From a virus, in the IMG/VR virus record IMGVR_UViG_3300043409_001462, positions 96,001 through 160,000 of that record: a stretch of 64,000 nucleotides of DNA. One strand, written 5' to 3'. The first letter of the stretch is position 1. The number at the start of each line of letters is the position of its first letter. Of this stretch, positions 1,150-35,654 are shown in pieces. The position numbers and the translations under genes were made by a program. The notes under the pieces are model-generated. The model made no database searches, was not told the DNA's origin, and saw only the letters and a program-made list of their open reading frames with translations.

Positions 1150-2466
1150 ATGGTTGAAACTCTTATAATTAAAAATGCAAATCTTCCTAAGAAAGCTAAT
1201 AAAGAGCTTATTCTAGGTACATTTATTACAAAAGATTCGTACGATCGTGTTATCGAATCCGACTGCGATCTTTATGCCTGGAATCAAACAGGAATTAATA
1301 ACGAAGAAAATTTAATTTTTAAGTTTCGTAAAAATATTTTTACGAAAGAAGAATGTGATGCTGCATATGCTGGTTTGAGAGAAGCTGCTACAGAATCTCA
1401 AAATCGTGGTATGGCTGCTGGTCCTCGTGGCGACCAACTCGGTCAGGAAGGTCGTGGTAATCGCGACTGGGTTACTGCTGAGCAAGAAGATATTATTTCA
1501 TTTTTGAAACGTCCTCTCAATAGTATTGAAGATGGTACCAGCATCGAGTCTATTATTAATATGCGTGTCTCTTCTAATAAAGAAGAGACACGTGGGCGTG
1601 TGTGGCTTCGTTCAGAAGTTACTAAATTATACCCAGAGTATCATGGTTGGTTCGATCAGTGGCTTAATCGTATTAAGGATCTTTCGCGCGAAGAACAGCT
1701 TAAAGAAGCTTATAAGATTGATGATTTTATTTCTGAAACTAACTACGCTCAATCCGTAAAATCTGGTATTGCTGGATATTTTGACAGCTACCCACGTATA
1801 CCTTATGGGCGTGCTACATCATACACTGAAAAGAATCCTGAAAAGTTTGCACTTTGTTACCCTTATCTCCATAAGCTTAACGACCAGTTTCGCGAACTGA
1901 TTCCTAATAGATGGAAGGCGCAAAATGCAGAAGCAAACAAGCTTGACACAAGATTCCGTATTGATGGCACTGTCTTCACTACTCTTACTGTTAACCACAA
2001 CTGGCGTACTGCCTGCCACCGTGATGCTGGTGATCTCACTAGCGGTTTCAGCAATATTTGTGGCGTCACTGGCCCAGAAGGTAAGGGATGGCGTGGCGGT
2101 CAGTTTATTCTCCCTGAGTACAGGATTGCTATTAATCTCCAGCCTGGTGATATGTTGCTCGTCAATAATCATGAAGGAATCCACGGAAACGACGAGCTCA
2201 TTGGCGATGACAATGATCGTATGACTATCGTTGCATACTTCCGTGAGAAGATGACAGAACTTCAATCATGGGATTACGAAAAGCTTCGCAAGCAGTATAT
2301 TGATGAGCGTAGATTAAATAAGGATCATAAGTTCCAACGTCCTCTTTGGAATGGCGTTTCCCCTGCTATGTGGGTAGACCAAGAATGGTATGATTATATG
2401 AAAAAACATAATATGGCCGACCCTTATAAGAAGGAAGAGCAATCAACGTTGGATAGTTTCTTTTGA
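1150..2466 (+). CDS. TET/JBP-family 2OG-Fe(II) 5-methylpyrimidine dioxygenase
   Basis: FTTLTVN, HxD (TACHRDAGD), distal His (GIHGN), Arg (RMTIVAYFRE); GAGGAG RBS; neighbours are base-modification genes. Confidence 0.85.
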   Translation: MVETLIIKNANLPKKANKELILGTFITKDSYDRVIESDCDLYAWNQTGINNEENLIFKFRKNIFTKEECDAAYAGLREAATESQNRGMAAGPRGDQLGQEGRGNRDWVTAEQEDIISFLKRPLNSIEDGTSIESIINMRVSSNKEETRGRVWLRSEVTKLYPEYHGWFDQWLNRIKDLSREEQLKEAYKIDDFISETNYAQSVKSGIAGYFDSYPRIPYGRATSYTEKNPEKFALCYPYLHKLNDQFRELIPNRWKAQNAEANKLDTRFRIDGTVFTTLTVNHNWRTACHRDAGDLTSGFSNICGVTGPEGKGWRGGQFILPEYRIAINLQPGDMLLVNNHEGIHGNDELIGDDNDRMTIVAYFREKMTELQSWDYEKLRKQYIDERRLNKDHKFQRPLWNGVSPAMWVDQEWYDYMKKHNMADPYKKEEQSTLDSFF

Positions 2467-3242
2467 AAATCGCTAAAATTTGTAATGAGTGGGAGCTTCC
2501 GTTCAACTTCGACCTAAAGAGCGAGGAGAACGTAAGCCTCCACAATCGTTCATATCTTCATTATGCCGCCGAACACCCAGAACTTGTTTCTTCAAAGTGC
2601 TGGGCCACTAAATGGCTCCTTGAAGATATTATTGACATGTCTCAAACCTATACTGCTATCGAGTACATGGCAGGTATTGGTGTTCAAAGTCTTTTGATTC
2701 AAAAGCTCTTTAATCTAGAATTTCATGTTATGGGAGAGCTAGACGAAGGATGCGTCGAACATCTTTCTAGCATTGACTGGGACCATAAGGCGATTGTAAA
2801 ATGTCAAGATGCACAAAAGTCTTTGATGGAAGATAATAATTTTGATTTGAAGTTTCTTGATCTTCCTAACTCTAGTATCCTTCAGGTTACAACAAAGTGG
2901 AAAGATGGATTCAACAAATTGTTTGAATCTAACCCAAAGCTTGTTGTTTGGACAGATACATCTATCACGTATCCTATTTCTATTCATGGCGAGAAGTATG
3001 GTAATATCTTAGGTGCTAAACTCGATACAAAATTCGACTACATTAATTCATATTCAGCTTGGCTTTTTAGAAATTTCGGTTATACTATAAAGAGAGCTGC
3101 AATCAGAGGGACTAACGCTGTGTATTTTGCAGCAGTTCCTGGATTAGTGTCTACTACTATTTCTAGTTTCCCAATCGCTGAAAACGAAGGTGGGTTTTAT
3201 TTTATCGGAGAGGAAAAAAGCACTCTTGACAGTTTCTTCTAA
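2463..3242 (+). CDS. Putative class I SAM-dependent methyltransferase in DNA-modification cluster
   Basis: Motif I-like EYMAGIG, acidic motif II (ELD), DA, DLKFLDLP; no PC motif of C5-cytosine methyltransferases. Confidence 0.55.
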   Translation: MKIAKICNEWELPFNFDLKSEENVSLHNRSYLHYAAEHPELVSSKCWATKWLLEDIIDMSQTYTAIEYMAGIGVQSLLIQKLFNLEFHVMGELDEGCVEHLSSIDWDHKAIVKCQDAQKSLMEDNNFDLKFLDLPNSSILQVTTKWKDGFNKLFESNPKLVVWTDTSITYPISIHGEKYGNILGAKLDTKFDYINSYSAWLFRNFGYTIKRAAIRGTNAVYFAAVPGLVSTTISSFPIAENEGGFYFIGEEKSTLDSFF

Positions 3243-4386
3243 TCAAATTATCGGTCGCTGGTCAGAACTTAACAATCAACCAGAAATTTCAGATCTTAAA
3301 GCAGGTATGGATTTTCGAGAACCTCGTTATCGTCGAGAAGTATTTTTACGATTTTATGAATATCATTTGAAATATAAATCGCATCCTGGCGCTGTTTATT
3401 TTGCTATGCCATGGCTTGCTAAAAAATTAAATATGGACATGGAAACAAAGCTATGGTTTGCTTTTATCAATGGATGCTCTCAAAACATAGTTACAACTTA
3501 TATTATCTTTCAAAAATACCCTAATCTTAAAGAAGTTAAACTAGAACAGCTTTCTGAATGGTGGGGAGATAACCAGCATAAGTTCAAAGCTGGTTCTGGT
3601 TGGGATACAGATCGTAAATATTTCAAGTATGGGAAAACAGGATTCCCAAACTGTGTAAAGTCGTATAAAGAAAACGTTGATAAATTTGGATCACAGGTTG
3701 ACTTGTTCAACAGTTTAAGCTATACTAATGATAAGTCAAAAAACTTCCAAAATACCTGGGATTATGTTCGTAAGAACTTTATGACCTTTGGTCGTCTTTC
3801 TGCGTTTTCCTATCTTGAGTATTTACGTATTCAGGGTGTAAACTTAGATTGTGATAATCTTTTTCTAGAAGATATTGATGGTTCTCGTTCTCACCGTAAT
3901 GGTCTATGTAAAGTACTAGGTCGTGACGATCTTGACTGGTGGAAGCAGGATCTTAAGTATGATGCCGAAACTATCGAATGGTTGAAGGTAGAAGGCGAAA
4001 TGCTTCTTAATGAAGCAAAAGCTCGTTTTGGACATCTATATAAAGACGTTTCGTATTTTACATTAGAGTCAACTTTCTGTTGTTATAAATCTTGGCATAG
4101 ACCCAAGCGTCGTTATCCTAATGTATACATGGATATGTTCCATGATCGTATTAAGTATGCAGAGTCAGAGTGGGATATGAGTTTAGATTTGTTTTGGCAA
4201 ATGAGAAAAGAATGTTTGCCTGAACACCTGCGTTTAGAAGATAATCCTAAAGACCCAGGATTAGTTCCTGAAAAGCAAAATCATTATCTTACTACAGGAC
4301 AGGTGATAATGATGGATAAAGAGTGGGAATGTTTTGAAAACGATTTCTATGGTCCAAAAGGCATTGAACATTTTTATACGGAGTGA
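3226..4386 (+). CDS. Amino acid:DNA transferase-like protein (aGPT-Pplase2 family, HhH-glycosylase fold)
   Basis: WFAFING, WDTDRKY, FGRLSAFSYLEYL, SRSHRNGL, TLESTFCCYKSW; TTG start after GGAGAGG. Confidence 0.75.
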   Translation: MTVSSNQIIGRWSELNNQPEISDLKAGMDFREPRYRREVFLRFYEYHLKYKSHPGAVYFAMPWLAKKLNMDMETKLWFAFINGCSQNIVTTYIIFQKYPNLKEVKLEQLSEWWGDNQHKFKAGSGWDTDRKYFKYGKTGFPNCVKSYKENVDKFGSQVDLFNSLSYTNDKSKNFQNTWDYVRKNFMTFGRLSAFSYLEYLRIQGVNLDCDNLFLEDIDGSRSHRNGLCKVLGRDDLDWWKQDLKYDAETIEWLKVEGEMLLNEAKARFGHLYKDVSYFTLESTFCCYKSWHRPKRRYPNVYMDMFHDRIKYAESEWDMSLDLFWQMRKECLPEHLRLEDNPKDPGLVPEKQNHYLTTGQVIMMDKEWECFENDFYGPKGIEHFYTE

Positions 4387-4388
4387 CT

Positions 4389-4928
4389 ATGAAAGTTATA
4401 GCAATCGGTGGTAATCCAGGCAGTGGTAAGTCGACGCTGATGAAGCGTGTGATTGAGTATTACACTCCTGTAAAAAAGTATGATGAGTTTAAGTTGGTTC
4501 CTTACCTACAGAATAACAAAATTTACATTCTTGGTAAGTATGATGAAGGTGAAGTATTTTCTGGCACTGACCGTATGAGTATGGCAGTTCAGCCAGAGGC
4601 TATTAAATTTTTAGCTAGTCTTCCTGCTGATTCTATAGTATTATATGAAGGTGATAGATTGTTCACTGCTTCATTCCTAGAAGATTGTGCAGAGAAGTAT
4701 GAATTGAAGATTATTCATTTATCTACTTCTGTGGAAGTTCGTGAAGATCGTTACAAGGAACGTGGGAGCAACCAAAACGTTACATGGCTTCAGGGTCGTG
4801 AAAGTAAGATCAATAACATTTTGACGAATATGTCTCTATTATTTTTCGTAGACTCATTTCAAAACGACGACTGGTTTGAACAAGAAATTATATTTCAATC
4901 TATAATTAATGAGGTGAACAATGGATGA
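4389..4928 (+). CDS. P-loop nucleotide/5hmU-DNA kinase-like protein
   Basis: Walker A GNPGSGKS, GTDRMSMAVQP, EGDRL motifs of kinases associated with thymine hypermodification. Confidence 0.75.
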   Translation: MKVIAIGGNPGSGKSTLMKRVIEYYTPVKKYDEFKLVPYLQNNKIYILGKYDEGEVFSGTDRMSMAVQPEAIKFLASLPADSIVLYEGDRLFTASFLEDCAEKYELKIIHLSTSVEVREDRYKERGSNQNVTWLQGRESKINNILTNMSLLFFVDSFQNDDWFEQEIIFQSIINEVNNG

Positions 4929-5283
4929 TATTAAAGTTGTATATGGCCCAGCTGACAAATATGATACTAGCGTAACTGCTTCTTATGGAGAAACTGACTT
5001 GACTGGAAAAAATTTCTACAAATATGCTGAAAACAAAATTCTTGCAGATCTTTGTGACTATATAGATAAGACGTACGATCAACACTACATGTCTGAAAAT
5101 GATGTACAGTGTTTTGATGCGTGGATTGCTCTTGGAGATGCGACTCCTACCTTCCGTAATACAGCCTTGAAGTATCTTTGGCGTTATGGTAAGAAGAGCG
5201 GTAACAACAAAGATGACTTGATGAAGACCTTACATTACACACTGTTGTGTTTGTATAACGATCACTATAAGGATGTTAAATAA
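4921..5283 (+). CDS. DUF3310-like protein
   Basis: TYDQHY...NTALKYLWRYGKK...DLMKTLHY pattern. Confidence 0.7.
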   Translation: MDDIKVVYGPADKYDTSVTASYGETDLTGKNFYKYAENKILADLCDYIDKTYDQHYMSENDVQCFDAWIALGDATPTFRNTALKYLWRYGKKSGNNKDDLMKTLHYTLLCLYNDHYKDVK

Positions 5284-6137
5284 TGGAAATTAATGTACCA
5301 ATCGAAATGCTTCGTGAGCGGAAGCTTTTCGTCGCGACTCCAATGTATGGCGGTATGTGCGCTGGAATGTTTGCTAAGTCTACTGCCGACTTGTCTGCTA
5401 TTTGTACGCAGTATGGTATTCCCCTACAGTACTACTATCTCTTCAACGAGTCATTGATCACTCGTGCACGCAACTACTGTGTTGATGAGTTTATGCGTTC
5501 GGATGCTGAACATCTTATGTTTATTGATGCTGATATTGGTTTCAATCCTCAGGATGTTATTGCTCTTATGGCTTTGCAGGCACAGGAGCCAGATAAGTAT
5601 GATATCATTGGTGGACCTTATCCTAAGAAGTGCATCAGCTGGGAAAAGATTAAGCTTGCAGTTGATAAGGGTATGGCTGACGAAGATCCAAACGTACTAG
5701 AAAAGTTCGTTGGTGATTATGTTTTCAATCCTAAGAATAACACTGGATCTATTCCTCTTGGAGAGCCAGTAGAAGTTCTAGAGATTGGTACTGGTTTTAT
5801 GATGATCAGTAAGCAAGCTTTGACTAAGTTTAGAGATAGCTATCCTCAACTTAGCTATAAGCCTGATCACGTTCGTACTGAAGCTTTTGATGGGTCACGT
5901 GAAATCCTCCAGTATTTCCAGGCTGAGATTGATCCTGTTTCTAGACGTTACCTTTCAGAAGACTATTGGTTTTGTCAGAAGGTTCAGGCTATTGGTCTCA
6001 AGACTTGGTTCTGTCCTTGGATGAAGATGCAGCACGTTGGCTCTTACATCTTTGGTGGTTCGTTGTCAGATCTTGCGTCTATTGGGGCGGCAGCAACTGC
6101 TGATCCTAGTGCTCTTGGTGGTAAGAAGAAGAAGTGA
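5283..6137 (+). CDS. GT-A fold glycosyltransferase
   Basis: FVATPMYGG, ESLITRARN, DxD (FIDADIGF), GTGFMMI, LSEDYWFC. Confidence 0.8.
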   Translation: MEINVPIEMLRERKLFVATPMYGGMCAGMFAKSTADLSAICTQYGIPLQYYYLFNESLITRARNYCVDEFMRSDAEHLMFIDADIGFNPQDVIALMALQAQEPDKYDIIGGPYPKKCISWEKIKLAVDKGMADEDPNVLEKFVGDYVFNPKNNTGSIPLGEPVEVLEIGTGFMMISKQALTKFRDSYPQLSYKPDHVRTEAFDGSREILQYFQAEIDPVSRRYLSEDYWFCQKVQAIGLKTWFCPWMKMQHVGSYIFGGSLSDLASIGAAATADPSALGGKKKK

Positions 6138-6151
6138 AAAAGGAATATATC

Positions 6152-6814
6152 ATGAATCTTAATGTGAAGACTATCGAAATCCTCAAGAATTTTTACTCTA
6201 TCAATCCTTCGCTCGTCGTGAAGGAAGGTAACGTATTGACTACCATTTCAACTGGTAAGACAATCGTCGCCAAGGCGACTGTACCAGATACATTTAGTAA
6301 GCGTTTTGCTATGTATAATCTTGGTCGGTTTATTAATTCTGTTACCTCTTATGAGAAGGCGGAAATTACATTTAATGACACTAACGTTGTTATTAAGGAA
6401 ACTGATAAGAATGAGAGCACTCGTTTGGCTTATGCTGATGAGTCAGGTATCAAGGTTCCTCCTGAGAAGGCTATTAATCTTCCTACAATCGATGCTACCT
6501 GTAAGATTACTACTGTAGCTCTTCGCACTGTACAAAAGCAGCTTGGTATTCTTGATGTACCTGAAATTGCTGTTACTGGCGATGGAACAAATATCTATCT
6601 TCAAGCTGTTGATTCTAAGAACGTAAATAGTGATACATTTTCTATTGTTATTGGATCAACTGATCGCACATTCCGTGCTTTGTTCAAGGTTGAAAACATC
6701 AAGGTGATTCCTGGAGACTACGAAGTTGATATTTGTTCGAAGGGCATCTCCCACTTTAAGGGAGAAGGTATCGAATACTGGATTGCAGTCGAGGCAAATT
6801 CAACCTACAGTTAA
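6152..6814 (+). CDS. 45: Sliding clamp gp45
   Basis: TIEILKNFYSINPS N-terminus, FKVENIKVIPGDY, YWIAVE C-terminus; synteny with gp44/gp62. Confidence 0.92.
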   Translation: MNLNVKTIEILKNFYSINPSLVVKEGNVLTTISTGKTIVAKATVPDTFSKRFAMYNLGRFINSVTSYEKAEITFNDTNVVIKETDKNESTRLAYADESGIKVPPEKAINLPTIDATCKITTVALRTVQKQLGILDVPEIAVTGDGTNIYLQAVDSKNVNSDTFSIVIGSTDRTFRALFKVENIKVIPGDYEVDICSKGISHFKGEGIEYWIAVEANSTYS

Positions 6815-6866: not shown

Positions 6867-7427
6867 ATGAGGTATGTGATGCATATCGATGCAAAAAAGA
6901 AATTACTGATAACAGAAATTGTTAAGATAGGATTAAATATTCCTTTCCAATCAGTCAAAGCGAAAATTATTTATTTTAATGAAAATGGTTCTTTAGAACC
7001 AAGATTAAGTATGTCATTTTCACCGAATATTCCAATTAATTCAACAGGAATATACACAATATACGCATCAAAAGATGGAATTGATGAGTGTCTTTATGTT
7101 GGTGAATCTGCTTACTGTGTCAGTCAAAGAATCAGAAGGTTTTTCAAAGAGCTTACTGGTTGTAGTAATCCAAATGAAACTCATCCAGCTGCAACTAAAG
7201 CTAAAGAGAATCGATATTCTCTAGAATCACATACTTTTAAAGTAAAGTGGATTCCATGGCCTTCAATAATTGAAGCCGCTCTAAAATTCGATGTTAAATT
7301 TGACGATTATTTTATGAATAATTTAGATAGCGAAATATCTTATTTAGTTAAATCGAAGTATAATTGCACAACATATATGATGTACGGTTATAGTGCTGCA
7401 ACTCTAAAAGACTTTTTGGGAGTTTAA
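6867..7427 (+). CDS. GIY-YIG-like endonuclease
   Basis: TGIYTIY...LYVGES...QRIRRF. Confidence 0.6.
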   Translation: MRYVMHIDAKKKLLITEIVKIGLNIPFQSVKAKIIYFNENGSLEPRLSMSFSPNIPINSTGIYTIYASKDGIDECLYVGESAYCVSQRIRRFFKELTGCSNPNETHPAATKAKENRYSLESHTFKVKWIPWPSIIEAALKFDVKFDDYFMNNLDSEISYLVKSKYNCTTYMMYGYSAATLKDFLGV

Positions 7428-7428
7428 T

Positions 7429-8367
7429 ATGCTTGAAGAATTTCTCTGGGTTGAGAAGTATCGTCCTAAAACTGTTGAGGAAACTATCCTACCTGCTGAT
7501 CTCAAGGCTGTATTCCAACAGTTCGTCGATCAGAAGAACATTCCTAATCTAATCTTATCTGGTTCTGCAGGCGTTGGTAAAACAACTATCGCTCGAGCTA
7601 TGCTCGAACAACTCGAATGCGACTACATCGTAATCAATGGGTCTATGAATGGTGGCATTGACACTCTCCGAAATGAAATCCTCTCTTTCGCTTCATCCGT
7701 CTCACTCCAGGGTGGACGTAAATATGTCATTCTTGACGAAGCAGATTACCTCAACGCAAACTCTACCCAACCCGCTCTCCGAAATTTTATGGAAGAGTTC
7801 TCTCGAAACTGTGGTTTCATTCTCACATGCAACTTTAAAAACAGAATCATTGAACCGCTACATTCTCGGTGCTCTGTCGTAGACTTCAAGATCAGCAAGA
7901 AGGATATGGCCAAGCTCGCTATGCAGTTTATGAAGCGAGTCAACATTATTCTTAATACAGAAAACATCAAGTATGAGTCTGCTGTTGTTGCAGAGGTAAT
8001 CCAAAAGCATTTCCCTGATTGGCGTCGTGTTCTTAATGAGCTGCAACGCTATGCAGCTACAGGTTCTATTGACACTGGTATTCTTGCTAATATGCAGGAT
8101 ATATCGATCAAAGAACTGGTCGATCTCCTTAAGGACAAAAACTTTACTGAGATTCGCAAGTGGGTTGCTAATAATCCTGACTATGATCAAAACGAAATTT
8201 ATCGCAAGCTTTATGAGCAAGCTTGTAATTTCCTAGAGGCTACAGCTGTAGCGCAACTTGTATTGATTATAGCTAGGTATCAGTATCAGGCTGCTTTTTC
8301 TGCCAATGCAGAAATCAATCTCGTTGCTTGTTTGACTGAGGTTATGAAGGATTGTGAATTTCAATGA
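7429..8367 (+). CDS. 44: Clamp loader large subunit gp44
   Basis: WVEKYRP, Walker A GSAGVGKTT, ILDEAD, PLHSRC. Confidence 0.95.
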   Translation: MLEEFLWVEKYRPKTVEETILPADLKAVFQQFVDQKNIPNLILSGSAGVGKTTIARAMLEQLECDYIVINGSMNGGIDTLRNEILSFASSVSLQGGRKYVILDEADYLNANSTQPALRNFMEEFSRNCGFILTCNFKNRIIEPLHSRCSVVDFKISKKDMAKLAMQFMKRVNIILNTENIKYESAVVAEVIQKHFPDWRRVLNELQRYAATGSIDTGILANMQDISIKELVDLLKDKNFTEIRKWVANNPDYDQNEIYRKLYEQACNFLEATAVAQLVLIIARYQYQAAFSANAEINLVACLTEVMKDCEFQ

Positions 8368-8741
8368 GTCCATTCGACATTATCAATTCTATCACTTACA
8401 ACAAGAAGCGTTTGATTGACGATTCTAATGAGAAGATGTACAATGCGTATCAGGTAAATAAAGGTTTGTCTTATTTTAAAGACACAATCTTCATTGCTCA
8501 AGAAATGAACATGAATTATCATCTTGATAATTTGCTTCAGCATGACTATCTTTTCCATACCGTAAGGAAGCAGAAGAGATTTGCTAAGTGGGTTAAGAAA
8601 GACAAGGATGCTGATATTGAAGCTATCAAGATTTATTTCAATTATGGCTATCGTAAAGCGCAAGAAGCTTATTCGATCCTATCAAAAGATCAGCTTGAGT
8701 ACATAAAGGAAAAAGTCAAGGGTGGAGCTTGCAATCGATAA
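8364..8741 (+). CDS. 62: Clamp loader small subunit gp62
   Basis: NKGLSYF, RKQKRFAKW, IKIYFNYG; follows gp44. Confidence 0.9.
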   Translation: MSPFDIINSITYNKKRLIDDSNEKMYNAYQVNKGLSYFKDTIFIAQEMNMNYHLDNLLQHDYLFHTVRKQKRFAKWVKKDKDADIEAIKIYFNYGYRKAQEAYSILSKDQLEYIKEKVKGGACNR

Positions 8742-33124: not shown

Positions 33125-33185
33125 TTTTTTCAACGTAGTAGGGTATTATTGGTAACAGTGATGCCCTACACTCACATTCGGAGTT

Positions 33186-35654
33186 ATGATGAAGTTTTAC
33201 ACAAGTGTTTATCAGCGTGGAGATAAGATTTATGTTCGTGGTTATGAAGACGGTCAACGTGTAGAATTTATCGAGAAGTATAAGCCATACCTCTTTCTTC
33301 CTAAGAAGGATGGGTTTTATCGTACACTGGATGGTAAGCAAGTTGATAAAATGCAGTTCGAGTCTATTTCGGACGCACGTGATTTTTGTGAGAAATATAA
33401 AGACGTATCGAACTTTGATTATTATGGACTGAACAACTATCAATATGTGTTTATGTATGACTATTACAACGGCGAGATCAATTACGATCCGTCGATTATT
33501 TCAGTAGTAACTATCGATATCGAGTGTGCAGCTGACGAGGGATTTCCTGATATTCAGAAGGCTGATAAAGAAATCACAGCTATCACTCTACGTAAGAACG
33601 GTAAGAACATTGTGTTCGGATGTGGAGAATATATTGAGCACAATGATGAGACCAAGTATATTCGTTGCAAAGATGAATTCGAATTGCTTGATAAATTTAT
33701 CAAAGTGTGGAATCATCCTACTTGGAAGCCAGATGTTGTTACTGGTTGGAACATAGAGTTCTTCGACATTCCTTACACGGTCAATCGTATCAAGAACGTA
33801 CTAGGCATAGAGTATGCTAAGAAGCTATCTCCTTGGCTTATTCTTGACGAGAAAGAAGTTGAATTCAAAGGCAAAAAAAATCAAACATACACTCCAGCTG
33901 GTATTGCTGTTCTTGACTATTATCAGTTGTATCGTAAGTTTTCATTCGGTAACCAAGAGAACTATAAGCTAGATTATATTTCTCAAGTTGAGCTGGGCGA
34001 GCAAAAGATCGATTACTCTGAATATGGTTCATTGCTTGAATTGTATAAGAGTAACTTTCAAAAGTTTATCGAGTATAACATTCACGACTGTGTGCTTGTT
34101 GATAGGCTTGACGAAAAGCTTAAGTTCATTGAACAGGTTATGGCGTTGGCGTATGACGCAAAGGTAAACTATGGTGATACCATGACGACTGTTCGTCCAT
34201 GGGATGTAATTATTCATAACTATCTGCTTGATCGTCGTATTGTTATTCCTCAGTTCGAACCTTCTAGGCAGGAGTTCGAATTGGTTGGTGGTCATGTGAA
34301 GGAACCTGTCCCAGGTTTGTATAAGTGGGTTGTATCATTCGATTTGAACAGTCTGTATCCGCATTTGATTATGCAATATAATATCAGCCCAGAAACATTC
34401 ATTACCCGTTTACCTAACTTCAATTCAATTGATAGTTTGCTTGATGGGACAATGTCGCATAACTGCGAACATGCTATCGCAGCGAACGGTTGCATCTATC
34501 ATAAGGACAAGCAAGGGTTTCTACCTCAGCTTATGGAAACAATGTACGACGACCGTACAAAGTATAAGAAGCTAATGATTGAAGCCAAGAAGCGATATGA
34601 GGAAAGTCACTCTCGCGAGGACGAGATGTTGATTGCTCGTTATCATAATATGCAGATGGCCAAGAAGATTCAATTGAACTCAGCTTACGGTGCGCTTGGT
34701 AATAGATACTTCCGTTGGTTCAGCTTTAATAATGCAGAAGCTATCACTATGTCTGGTCAGCTTTCTATCCGTTGGATTGAGAAAAAGATGAACCAGTTTA
34801 TGAACAAGGTTTGTAAGACCAAGGGAATAGATTTTGTTGTTGCTTCTGATACCGACTCAATCTATGTTACCTTTGATAGATTGATCCCTGCAGGTAGCGA
34901 CGAACTTGAAGCAGTAAAGTTAATCGATCAGTTCTGCGAAACTAAAATTCAGCATTATATCAACTCATGCTACGACGAGCTAGCTGGTATGATGAATGCT
35001 TATCAGCAGAAGATGCAAATGAAACGCGAAACTATCGCTAACAAGGGCATCTGGCGTAAGAAGAAGATGTATATTTTAAATGCCTGGAACGTTGAAGGTG
35101 TTCAGTATGATAAACCAAAGCTGAAGATTCAGGGTATCGAAGCTGTTCGTTCTTCAACACCTCACGTCTGTCGCGAGAAAATTAAACAGGCGTTGGATAT
35201 CATTATGAATAAAGATGAAGAGACACTTCAAGCATTTATTGAAACGTTTCGTCAAGAGTTTCTTGAACTTCCTTTCGAGAAAGTCGCCTTTCCTCGTGGA
35301 ATTAAAGGTATGAGTAAGTATTCTAGTAAGAAAGAAATATATATCAAAGGTACACCTATTCAAGTTAAAGGTGCATTGCTTTTCAATAACCTACTGCAAA
35401 CTAAAGGTATGAAAAACATACCACCTATCATGGATGGTGATAAAGTTAGGTTTGCTTATCTCAAATTGCCTAATCCTATCGGTGATACTGTTATTGCAAC
35501 TCCTGATGAACTTCCGAAAGAATTCAAGCTTGATAAGTATATCGATCGCGAGATGCAATTCAATAAAAGTTTCGTAGAACCACTACGCTCAATCACAGAA
35601 GTTATCGACTGGGAAGTTGAGCAGAGAGCAACATTGGAGGATTTCTTTGGCTAA
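33186..35654 (+). CDS. 43: Family B DNA polymerase gp43
   Basis: Exo DIE, SFDLNSLYPH, KIQLNSAYG, DTDS; C-terminal TLEDFFG. Confidence 0.97.
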   Translation: MMKFYTSVYQRGDKIYVRGYEDGQRVEFIEKYKPYLFLPKKDGFYRTLDGKQVDKMQFESISDARDFCEKYKDVSNFDYYGLNNYQYVFMYDYYNGEINYDPSIISVVTIDIECAADEGFPDIQKADKEITAITLRKNGKNIVFGCGEYIEHNDETKYIRCKDEFELLDKFIKVWNHPTWKPDVVTGWNIEFFDIPYTVNRIKNVLGIEYAKKLSPWLILDEKEVEFKGKKNQTYTPAGIAVLDYYQLYRKFSFGNQENYKLDYISQVELGEQKIDYSEYGSLLELYKSNFQKFIEYNIHDCVLVDRLDEKLKFIEQVMALAYDAKVNYGDTMTTVRPWDVIIHNYLLDRRIVIPQFEPSRQEFELVGGHVKEPVPGLYKWVVSFDLNSLYPHLIMQYNISPETFITRLPNFNSIDSLLDGTMSHNCEHAIAANGCIYHKDKQGFLPQLMETMYDDRTKYKKLMIEAKKRYEESHSREDEMLIARYHNMQMAKKIQLNSAYGALGNRYFRWFSFNNAEAITMSGQLSIRWIEKKMNQFMNKVCKTKGIDFVVASDTDSIYVTFDRLIPAGSDELEAVKLIDQFCETKIQHYINSCYDELAGMMNAYQQKMQMKRETIANKGIWRKKKMYILNAWNVEGVQYDKPKLKIQGIEAVRSSTPHVCREKIKQALDIIMNKDEETLQAFIETFRQEFLELPFEKVAFPRGIKGMSKYSSKKEIYIKGTPIQVKGALLFNNLLQTKGMKNIPPIMDGDKVRFAYLKLPNPIGDTVIATPDELPKEFKLDKYIDREMQFNKSFVEPLRSITEVIDWEVEQRATLEDFFG

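Follow-up and report, generated by a model that had tools for sequence, protein, structure and literature searches.

What a DNA-modifying enzyme gains by ending in the same short peptide as the replicative polymerase is the question raised by one locus of a T4-like phage, located in the IMG/VR virus record IMGVR_UViG_3300043409_001462 (positions 96,001 to 160,000, a stretch of 64,000 nucleotides designated here as the window). The window is a part of a complete 173-kb genome with 38% guanine plus cytosine, whose gp43 DNA polymerase is about 49% identical to the cyanomyovirus gp43. In this locus a TET/JBP-type dioxygenase (TET), the product of the next open reading frame (ORF3) and several further proteins share a C-terminal peptide of the type by which T4 proteins dock on the gp45 sliding clamp. 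This tail probably docks on gp45 and thereby keeps enzymes of post-replicative hypermodification on the clamp; physical binding to gp45, coupling to replication, and selectivity for phage DNA are what we infer from it.

The Shared Tail in the Window Phage

The TET protein ends in ..EEQSTLDSFF and the ORF3 product in ..EEKSTLDSFF, with the common STLDSFF encoded at 2443–2463 and 3219–3239, as an earlier reading of the window (the original prediction) had claimed. The same reading held that the peptide is written with largely different codons, and indeed 5 of 7 differ (TCA ACG TTG GAT AGT TTC TTT in TET; AGC ACT CTT GAC AGT TTC TTC in ORF3). The related ends that it listed for gp43 (RATLEDFFG), the 186-aa ORF at 6867–7427 (AATLKDFLGV), and the amino-acid:DNA transferase (GIEHFYTE) were likewise found in the sequence. 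The gp55 gene lies upstream of the window, and its product has ..GLEKFV and then an acidic run at its end. The tail consensus is a small residue, Leu, Asp or Glu, any residue, Phe, and Phe, placed at the C-terminus or at most 2 residues from it.

The strict C-terminal pattern occurs in only 4 of the 460 window ORFs (stop-to-stop frames of 50 aa or more), namely, TET, ORF3, the 6867–7427 ORF, and gp43. The rest of the 173-kb genome adds a gp26-like protein and non-coding frames but no other credible gene, and the background rate of the pattern, estimated in 80 loci of short-form TETs (0.88 Mb), is 2 of 1791 ORFs, which rules out a chance origin of the likeness.

Two proteins encoded outside the window contain similar residues and were not counted as carriers of a clamp tail: the gp26-like protein (genome 14148–14876, − strand), which ends in TSLTDFFTLR, and gp32 (genome 9691–10656, + strand), where SLEFF lies inside the acidic C-terminal tail.

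The genes of the locus and the polymerase gene are arranged in the window as follows.

695–1111, + strand: MazG-like protein (Pfam PF01503, PRA-PH, E 4.9e-22)
1135–2466, + strand: TET/JBP-type 5-methylpyrimidine dioxygenase (PF12851, E 3.5e-19; phrog_24024, E 3e-137), probable start ATG 1150; tail STLDSFF
2463–3242, + strand: ORF3, 259 aa, class I S-adenosylmethionine (SAM)-methyltransferase fold, with a TTG start that overlaps the TET stop; tail STLDSFF
3190–4386, + strand: amino-acid:DNA transferase (ADDT/AADT; PF18724, E 2.2e-19), likely start ATG 3307; tail GIEHFYTE at 4360–4383
4383–4928, + strand: P-loop nucleotide kinase 3 of the 5-hydroxymethylpyrimidine DNA kinase type (PF18751, E 4.4e-12); no tail
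4921–5283, + strand: DUF3310 protein (PF11753); no tail
5283–6137, + strand: phrog_1574 protein, 284 aa (PHROG match); Lys-rich end, which is not a clamp motif
6152–6814, + strand: gp45 sliding clamp, 220 aa from ATG 6152 (PF09116, E 1.5e-12; phrog_223, E 4e-62), the proposed docking partner
6867–7427, + strand: 186-aa ORF between genes 45 and 44, with a GIY..YVG motif and no family match; tail ATLKDFLGV at 7398–7424
7429–8367, + strand: gp44 clamp loader (ORF; homologues annotated as gp44 in phages DLP6 and Cr30)
8364–8741, + strand: gp62 clamp loader (ORF; homologues annotated as gp62 in DLP6 and Cr30)
after gp44/gp62, + strand: regA (homologues in DLP6 and Cr30)
33162–35654, + strand: gp43 family B DNA polymerase (phrog_262, E 0); tail ATLEDFFG at 35628–35651, the reference clamp-binding tail of this phage

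The start of gp45 at 6152 is thus 1.8 kb downstream of the amino-acid:DNA transferase, and gp45 homologues have a similar length of 217–220 aa. No match of the gene cluster was found by megablast among 50,697 phage records.

Conservation and Family Specificity

The tail was counted with a strict and a loose pattern in 95 related IMG/VR loci (1.08 Mb), whose genes were clustered into 67 families. It is present by both patterns in all 27 TET-associated glycosyltransferases (TAGT, PF20691), all 16 members of the ORF3 family, and all 4 gp43 polymerases, and the 90 TET proteins carry it in 75 cases by the strict and in 86 by the loose pattern. In the 186-aa ORF family the strict pattern gave 0/3 and the loose one 3/3, the homologues at the same position keeping ATLK[DN]FLG. 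The families of the kinase, DUF3310, MazG, phrog_1574, gp45, gp44, gp62, regA, and the remaining ones, about 60 in all, have 0 strict tails and at most a few loose ones (kinase 2/44, gp44 2/40), with no tail in the 61 DUF3310 and 53 phrog_1574 homologues. The few further tail-positive proteins, comprising GNAT, GT1-like, and small 2-oxoglutarate (2OG) oxygenase proteins, are again candidate modification enzymes.

The amino-acid:DNA transferases have 2/47 strict and 27/47 loose tails, which are G[LIV]ExF[FM]-like. The gp55 proteins of 27 related loci end in G[VIL]E[KVI]F[SIV] plus acidic residues, that is, in the same form, and the transferase tail is therefore a sigma-type version of the motif. 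According to these data the GIEHFYTE end named in the original prediction is present, but what was called there a weaker tail corresponds to the gp55 version of related phages.

The tail also persists over considerable divergence. The ending [ST/N]L[DE]xFF is found in nearly all of the 120 closest TET relatives, 38 ORF3 relatives end mostly in TLDxFF, and among representatives chosen at 50% identity the tail is still present in long-form TETs at about 40% identity. When 39 TET C-termini are aligned, near-invariance is confined to L, F, and F, and the linker that precedes them varies in both length and sequence; in total, more than 100 homologues keep the tail behind such a variable linker. The carriers belong to at least six unrelated folds: 2OG dioxygenase, TAGT, Rossmann methyltransferase, AADT, D12 Dam, and family B polymerase. 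A FastTree phylogeny of 126 representatives gave 12 tail changes, a figure used only qualitatively due to truncated fragments, a few false pattern matches, and an arbitrary root.

In cultured phages the tail is carried by TET and one TAGT of DLP6, by TET of C48C1 (OQ984149.1), and by a TAGT-like protein of Cr30, whose TET ends in the short variant GATLF. In all 8 phages where both are known, the aromatic pair is the same in the polymerase and in the tailed enzymes, being FF in six and LF in Cr30 (polymerase DLSSLF, TAGT-like protein DLSKLF) and in the 220-kb ENA contig L103 (polymerase and TET both ..LDDLFG). The D12-class Dam methyltransferase of C48C1 (L110:2429–3307), whose gene adjoins gp43, has a 14-residue C-terminal extension ending in STLDAFFG, which is absent from five other cyanophage Dam orthologues and from Mic1; the tail seems to have been acquired here as a module. 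The tail is not general to cyanophage Dam enzymes, since 5/5 of the others are without it.

Several other C-terminal ends were noticed in the same group. The K-x-ATL[FWY] sequence stands at the very C-terminus of some long-form TETs, of Cr30 TET, and of a second TAGT-like protein (P0017, P0029, P0073, and others; L003:7001–8329; L044:11317–12078) and may be a shortened variant of the clamp-type tail. A glutamine amidotransferase family encoded beside TET in many sister phages (L099:11380–12060 and 28 homologues) has a conserved [IVY]EDLQ end, and the GNAT family beside it often ends in KG[VL]D[FIL][FY]xE; possibly, both are further docking-tail variants.

Tail and Presence of the gp45 Clamp

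Short-form TETs have no tail (0/80) and no gp45 in their flanks (the 80 loci mentioned above), and among 10 whole records with short-form TETs, seven of them 99–100% complete, none has a PF09116 match, the search being aimed at gp45-type clamps only and not at DnaN- or PCNA-type ones. PF09116 is present in 5/5 records with tailed TETs. The named phages follow the same distribution, with HTVC112P, P12024L, and S-CBWM1 lacking both gp45 and the tail and DLP6, C48C1, and Cr30 having both, and two distant short TETs that do carry the tail are both found in T4-like contigs. The context of five further TET representatives consists of short contigs and is uninformative on clamps. Tails equally common in homologues from phages that lack the clamp would, according to the original prediction, have spoken against its own proposal, and this is not what was observed.

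Several short-form TETs checked for context adjoin a ParB gene, which fits the ParB-dependent T-dioxygenases of the 5mYOX group described in PMC13229309. Many short-form TETs end in ..R-x-GDPLY-like sequences (P0204, P0214, P0270, P0304, and others; L104:3077–4036), with those checked for context adjoining ParB; this end is possibly what PMC13229309 treats as the ParB-related extension. Another arrangement was observed in L103 (8550–13293), one of the two T4-like contigs with a distant short tailed TET, where gp43 is split in two ORFs matching residues 9–473 and 491–830 of the window gp43, and a 366-aa TET and a 229-aa ORF are inserted between the halves; the ..LDDLFG end belongs to the polymerase C-piece and to this TET.

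Comparison with Known Clamp Ligands and Complex Prediction

The T4 tails read from NC_000866 (gp43 ..ASLDFLFG, gp55 ..SLDFLYEAND, and gp33 ..TLDFLL) have the same Leu-x-x-hydrophobic-aromatic spacing as the window tails. The hydrophobic-acidic C-termini of T4 proteins bind gp45 and are interchangeable, and the clamp-binding C-terminus of gp55 is preceded by a linker of divergent sequence and length (PMC2988020). Together these data bear out the statement from which the original prediction started, that T4 gp43, gp33, and gp55 dock on gp45 through a C-terminal SLDFLF/L-like tail. The T4/RB69 epitopes and the window tails agree in extreme C-terminal position, divergent flexible linker, and hydrophobic-acidic character, and in both cases the genome encodes gp45 and gp44/62 and its own gp43 and gp55 carry the tail. 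They differ in that the T4/RB69 epitope SLDFL[FYL] belongs to polymerase and transcription factors, whereas in the window phage [ST]L[DE]xFF is found on base-modifying enzymes, whose binding is predicted.

Prediction of a complex of three gp45 chains with the last 40 residues of TET, the kind of modelling proposed along with the original prediction, gave a score of 0.59 (runs 0.59, 0.61, and 0.59), while the best of 3 controls gave 0.00. At least 50% of the contacts are common to the runs, and the partner has a predicted local distance difference test (pLDDT) of at least 43. Of 80 solved complexes 58 pass the mark used for this prediction, as do 2 of 110 mismatched pairs, and scores at the mark but not above 0.60 include only 7 of the 80 solved complexes and both of the passing mismatches. 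The pass may reflect likeness only, because a similar complex, the RB69 clamp with the polymerase peptide, has been solved.

Outside phages the closest analogy is the eukaryotic maintenance methyltransferase DNMT1, which is tethered to the trimeric clamp PCNA by a PIP-box. In both cases a Leu-x-x-aromatic-aromatic peptide would hook a DNA-modifying enzyme to a trimeric PCNA-type clamp, with modification following replication, and the window TET tail even reads Q-x-x-L-x-x-F-F. DNMT1 differs as a maintenance methylase, whereas the window motif is strictly C-terminal and belongs to phage hypermodification enzymes. The tails do not represent canonical PIP boxes (Qxx[LIM]xx[FY][FY]): the Gln of the window TET stands in a column that is not conserved and ORF3 has Lys there. 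Neither do they correspond to the host beta-clamp motif, having no QL[SD]LF consensus, no conserved Gln, and no hydrophobic residue at the fourth position.

In summary of this comparison, the predicted gp45-type clamp-docking tail of DNA-modification enzymes is backed by the likeness to gp43, gp55, and the T4 epitopes, by conservation, by restriction to families of DNA-acting enzymes, and by absence where gp45 is absent; the coupling to the fork and the restriction to phage DNA that the original prediction added are conjectural.

Identity of the Tailed Enzymes

The assignment of the first enzyme to TET/JBP, also made in the original prediction, agrees with the PF12851 profile match (69 bits at a cut-off of 34.9) and with the residues H295, D297, H350, and R362 (the HxD..H iron triad and the 2OG-binding Arg), which are invariant in 50 diverse homologues. 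Since the complete genome has no PF00145 C5-methyltransferase and genes for a kinase and an amino-acid:DNA transferase, neighbours characteristic of thymidine pathways, adjoin, it is more likely to be a thymine dioxygenase than a 5-methylcytosine one. The amino-acid:DNA transferase matches PF18724 with 70.5 bits at a cut-off of 26.2.

The claim that the next gene encodes a methyltransferase stands for the fold but not for the family. The AlphaFold2 (AF2) model of ORF3 has a mean pLDDT of 89.6, with values below 50 in the last 6 residues, and structure searches (Foldseek, VIA-align) returned nucleic-acid methyltransferases with Z 14–15 (Trm1, RsmD, RlmO, and Trm5). Conservation is complete at residues E67, G71, and G73 and almost complete at E92 and D94, which corresponds to the Gly-rich motif I and the acidic residue after strand 2. 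After strand 4 the protein has D-L-P-[NS]-S-S where DNA methyltransferases have DPPY or PCQ, no match was obtained in Pfam, PHROG, and NCBIfam or by a profile search against PDB sequences, and tblastn against the 50,697 phage records also found none. Because a canonical motif IV and a family profile match are lacking, ORF3 is, as modelled, a class I SAM-methyltransferase at the fold level only.

Objections and Alternative Explanations

Several facts weigh against clamp tethering as set out above. The complex prediction for gp45 and the TET tail gives weak support. The kinase of the same pathway, which is expected to act on DNA, has a strict tail in 0/44 homologues, and about 10% of long-form TETs end in the different K-x-ATL[FWY] tail, while a few have none. 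Most tailed TETs belong to one long-form clade in one viral lineage, and the association with the clamp is partly confounded by ancestry, to which the restriction of the clamp search in short-form records to the gp45 type has to be added; nevertheless, tail gains in unrelated enzyme families favour selection over descent alone. In T4 itself Dam and the alpha- and beta-glucosyltransferases end without such a tail (T4 sequences checked), which rules out T4's own modification enzymes as tail carriers. An interaction of T4 alpha-glucosyltransferase (alpha-GT) with gp45 was proposed by Sommer et al. in 2004, as cited in bioRxiv 10.64898/2025.12.06.692756, and this 2025 preprint found no such interaction in vitro or in vivo. 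Thus, clamp tethering of modification is not a general rule of the T4 family. The older T4 proposal contained the same idea of a phage DNA-modifying enzyme riding the clamp, and the clade of the window phage differs from it by an explicit, conserved sequence signal.

The strongest competitor, although rather improbable, is docking of the tail on some other shared partner, such as gp32, a scaffold of modification enzymes, or the host beta clamp. SLEFF inside the gp32 tail of the window phage indicates that this peptide class is not exclusive to clamp ligands, and the weakness of the complex prediction leaves room for such a partner; yet gp43 and gp55 carry this peptide at their ends and the corresponding T4 proteins use it to bind gp45, tails are absent where gp45 is absent, and the lack of the QL[SD]LF consensus speaks against the host clamp in particular. 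Less probable still, and indeed unlikely, is that the tail is an intrinsic part of the enzyme needed for folding, catalysis, or DNA contact. The model for this is the C-terminal extension of the ParB-dependent 5mYOX, truncation of which takes away much of the activity (PMC13229309), but that extension differs in sequence (tails such as ..GDPLY), whereas the peptide considered here is shared by at least six unrelated folds, follows a variable linker, and in ORF3 is predicted to be disordered.

That the tail serves as a signal for degradation or localisation, such as a C-terminal degron timing the early, replication-phase proteins, is very unlikely. Hydrophobic C-termini can act as protease tags, and beyond this general background nothing in the present analysis favours such a role, which would not account for why the peptide equals the clamp epitopes of the polymerase and the sigma factor, why among the products of the early genes of the operon only DNA-acting enzymes have it, or why it goes with gp45. 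Finally, a functionless likeness, arisen by chance or because the 3′ end of a gene was recently duplicated or converted, could be suspected from the fact that the two identical window peptides are only 780 bp apart, and it has practically no probability left. Recent duplication or conversion is ruled out because 5/7 codons differ and the folds are unrelated, and with the tail kept down to about 40% identity against a background of 2/1791 ORFs this explanation is already refuted by the conservation data.

Proposed Mechanism and Its Significance

The proposed docking peptide forms the tip of a flexible linker of variable sequence and terminates enzymes acting on polymerised DNA: the TET/JBP dioxygenase, which probably converts thymine to 5-hydroxymethyluracil, the amino-acid:DNA transferase, and the methyltransferase-fold enzyme, with TAGT among them in sister phages. 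Clamps that gp44/62 loads at primer ends and nicks remain on newly made DNA, and an enzyme hooked to such a clamp would search the duplex one-dimensionally in the vicinity of the fork. Successive enzymes of the pathway could occupy the three sites of the gp45 trimer.

The ParB-dependent T-dioxygenases (PMC13229309) offer a parallel. Like the window TET, they are post-replicative phage 5mYOX enzymes with downstream kinase and AADT genes, and they combine a subclass-specific C-terminal extension with a DNA-riding helper protein, as is proposed here for TET and gp45. Truncating the extension strongly lowers activity even when ParB is not needed (PMC13229309). The two systems differ in that the helper there is an adjacent ParB homologue and the extension has another sequence, while the T4-like clade has no adjacent ParB and carries a polymerase-type tail. 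A bolder version of the proposal, which is speculative and at present rather doubtful, is that in T4-like phages gp45 takes the place of ParB as an obligate processivity and activation factor for the entire set of enzymes that hypermodify DNA after replication (dioxygenase, transferase or glycosyltransferase, and methyltransferase), the tail being a portable tag appended repeatedly (TET, TAGT, AADT, ORF3, and C48C1 Dam), so that modification would be strictly coupled to replication.

In the main papers on phage TET, 5mYOX, and glycosyltransferases, clamps are mentioned only as neighbouring genes, and the published TET and glycosyltransferase assays used C-terminally His-tagged enzymes with no clamp. 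In the literature on clamp-binding motifs of phage modification enzymes no paper describing such tails was found. If clamp docking is true, the published assays could underestimate native activity. Docking may explain the efficient access of ParB-independent phage TET/5mYOX enzymes to double-stranded DNA, and also why a hypermodification of several steps does not fall behind replication. The tailed clade gives a conserved sequence handle by which the disputed question of modification-replisome coupling in T4 becomes testable, and a short portable clamp-docking tag could also serve enzyme engineering.

Additional Observations at the Locus

The 186-aa ORF that separates genes 45 and 44, called a GIY-YIG protein in the original prediction, is a candidate for that family by a GIY..YVG motif seen by eye, with no profile match in Pfam, PHROG, and NCBIfam and an unreliable AF2 model (pLDDT 40). 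Only 4 of about 46 loci have it in the gp45–gp44 gap, and this points to a mobile insertion. The phrog_1574 protein, which contains a DAD motif, is encoded directly upstream of gene 45 in the window phage, DLP6, Cr30, and 53 related loci, irrespective of the modification genes that accompany it. In addition, a 658-aa fusion of TET and P-loop kinase 3 was found (L204:1259–3235; P0233), and this protein ends in ..DLSEMFG.

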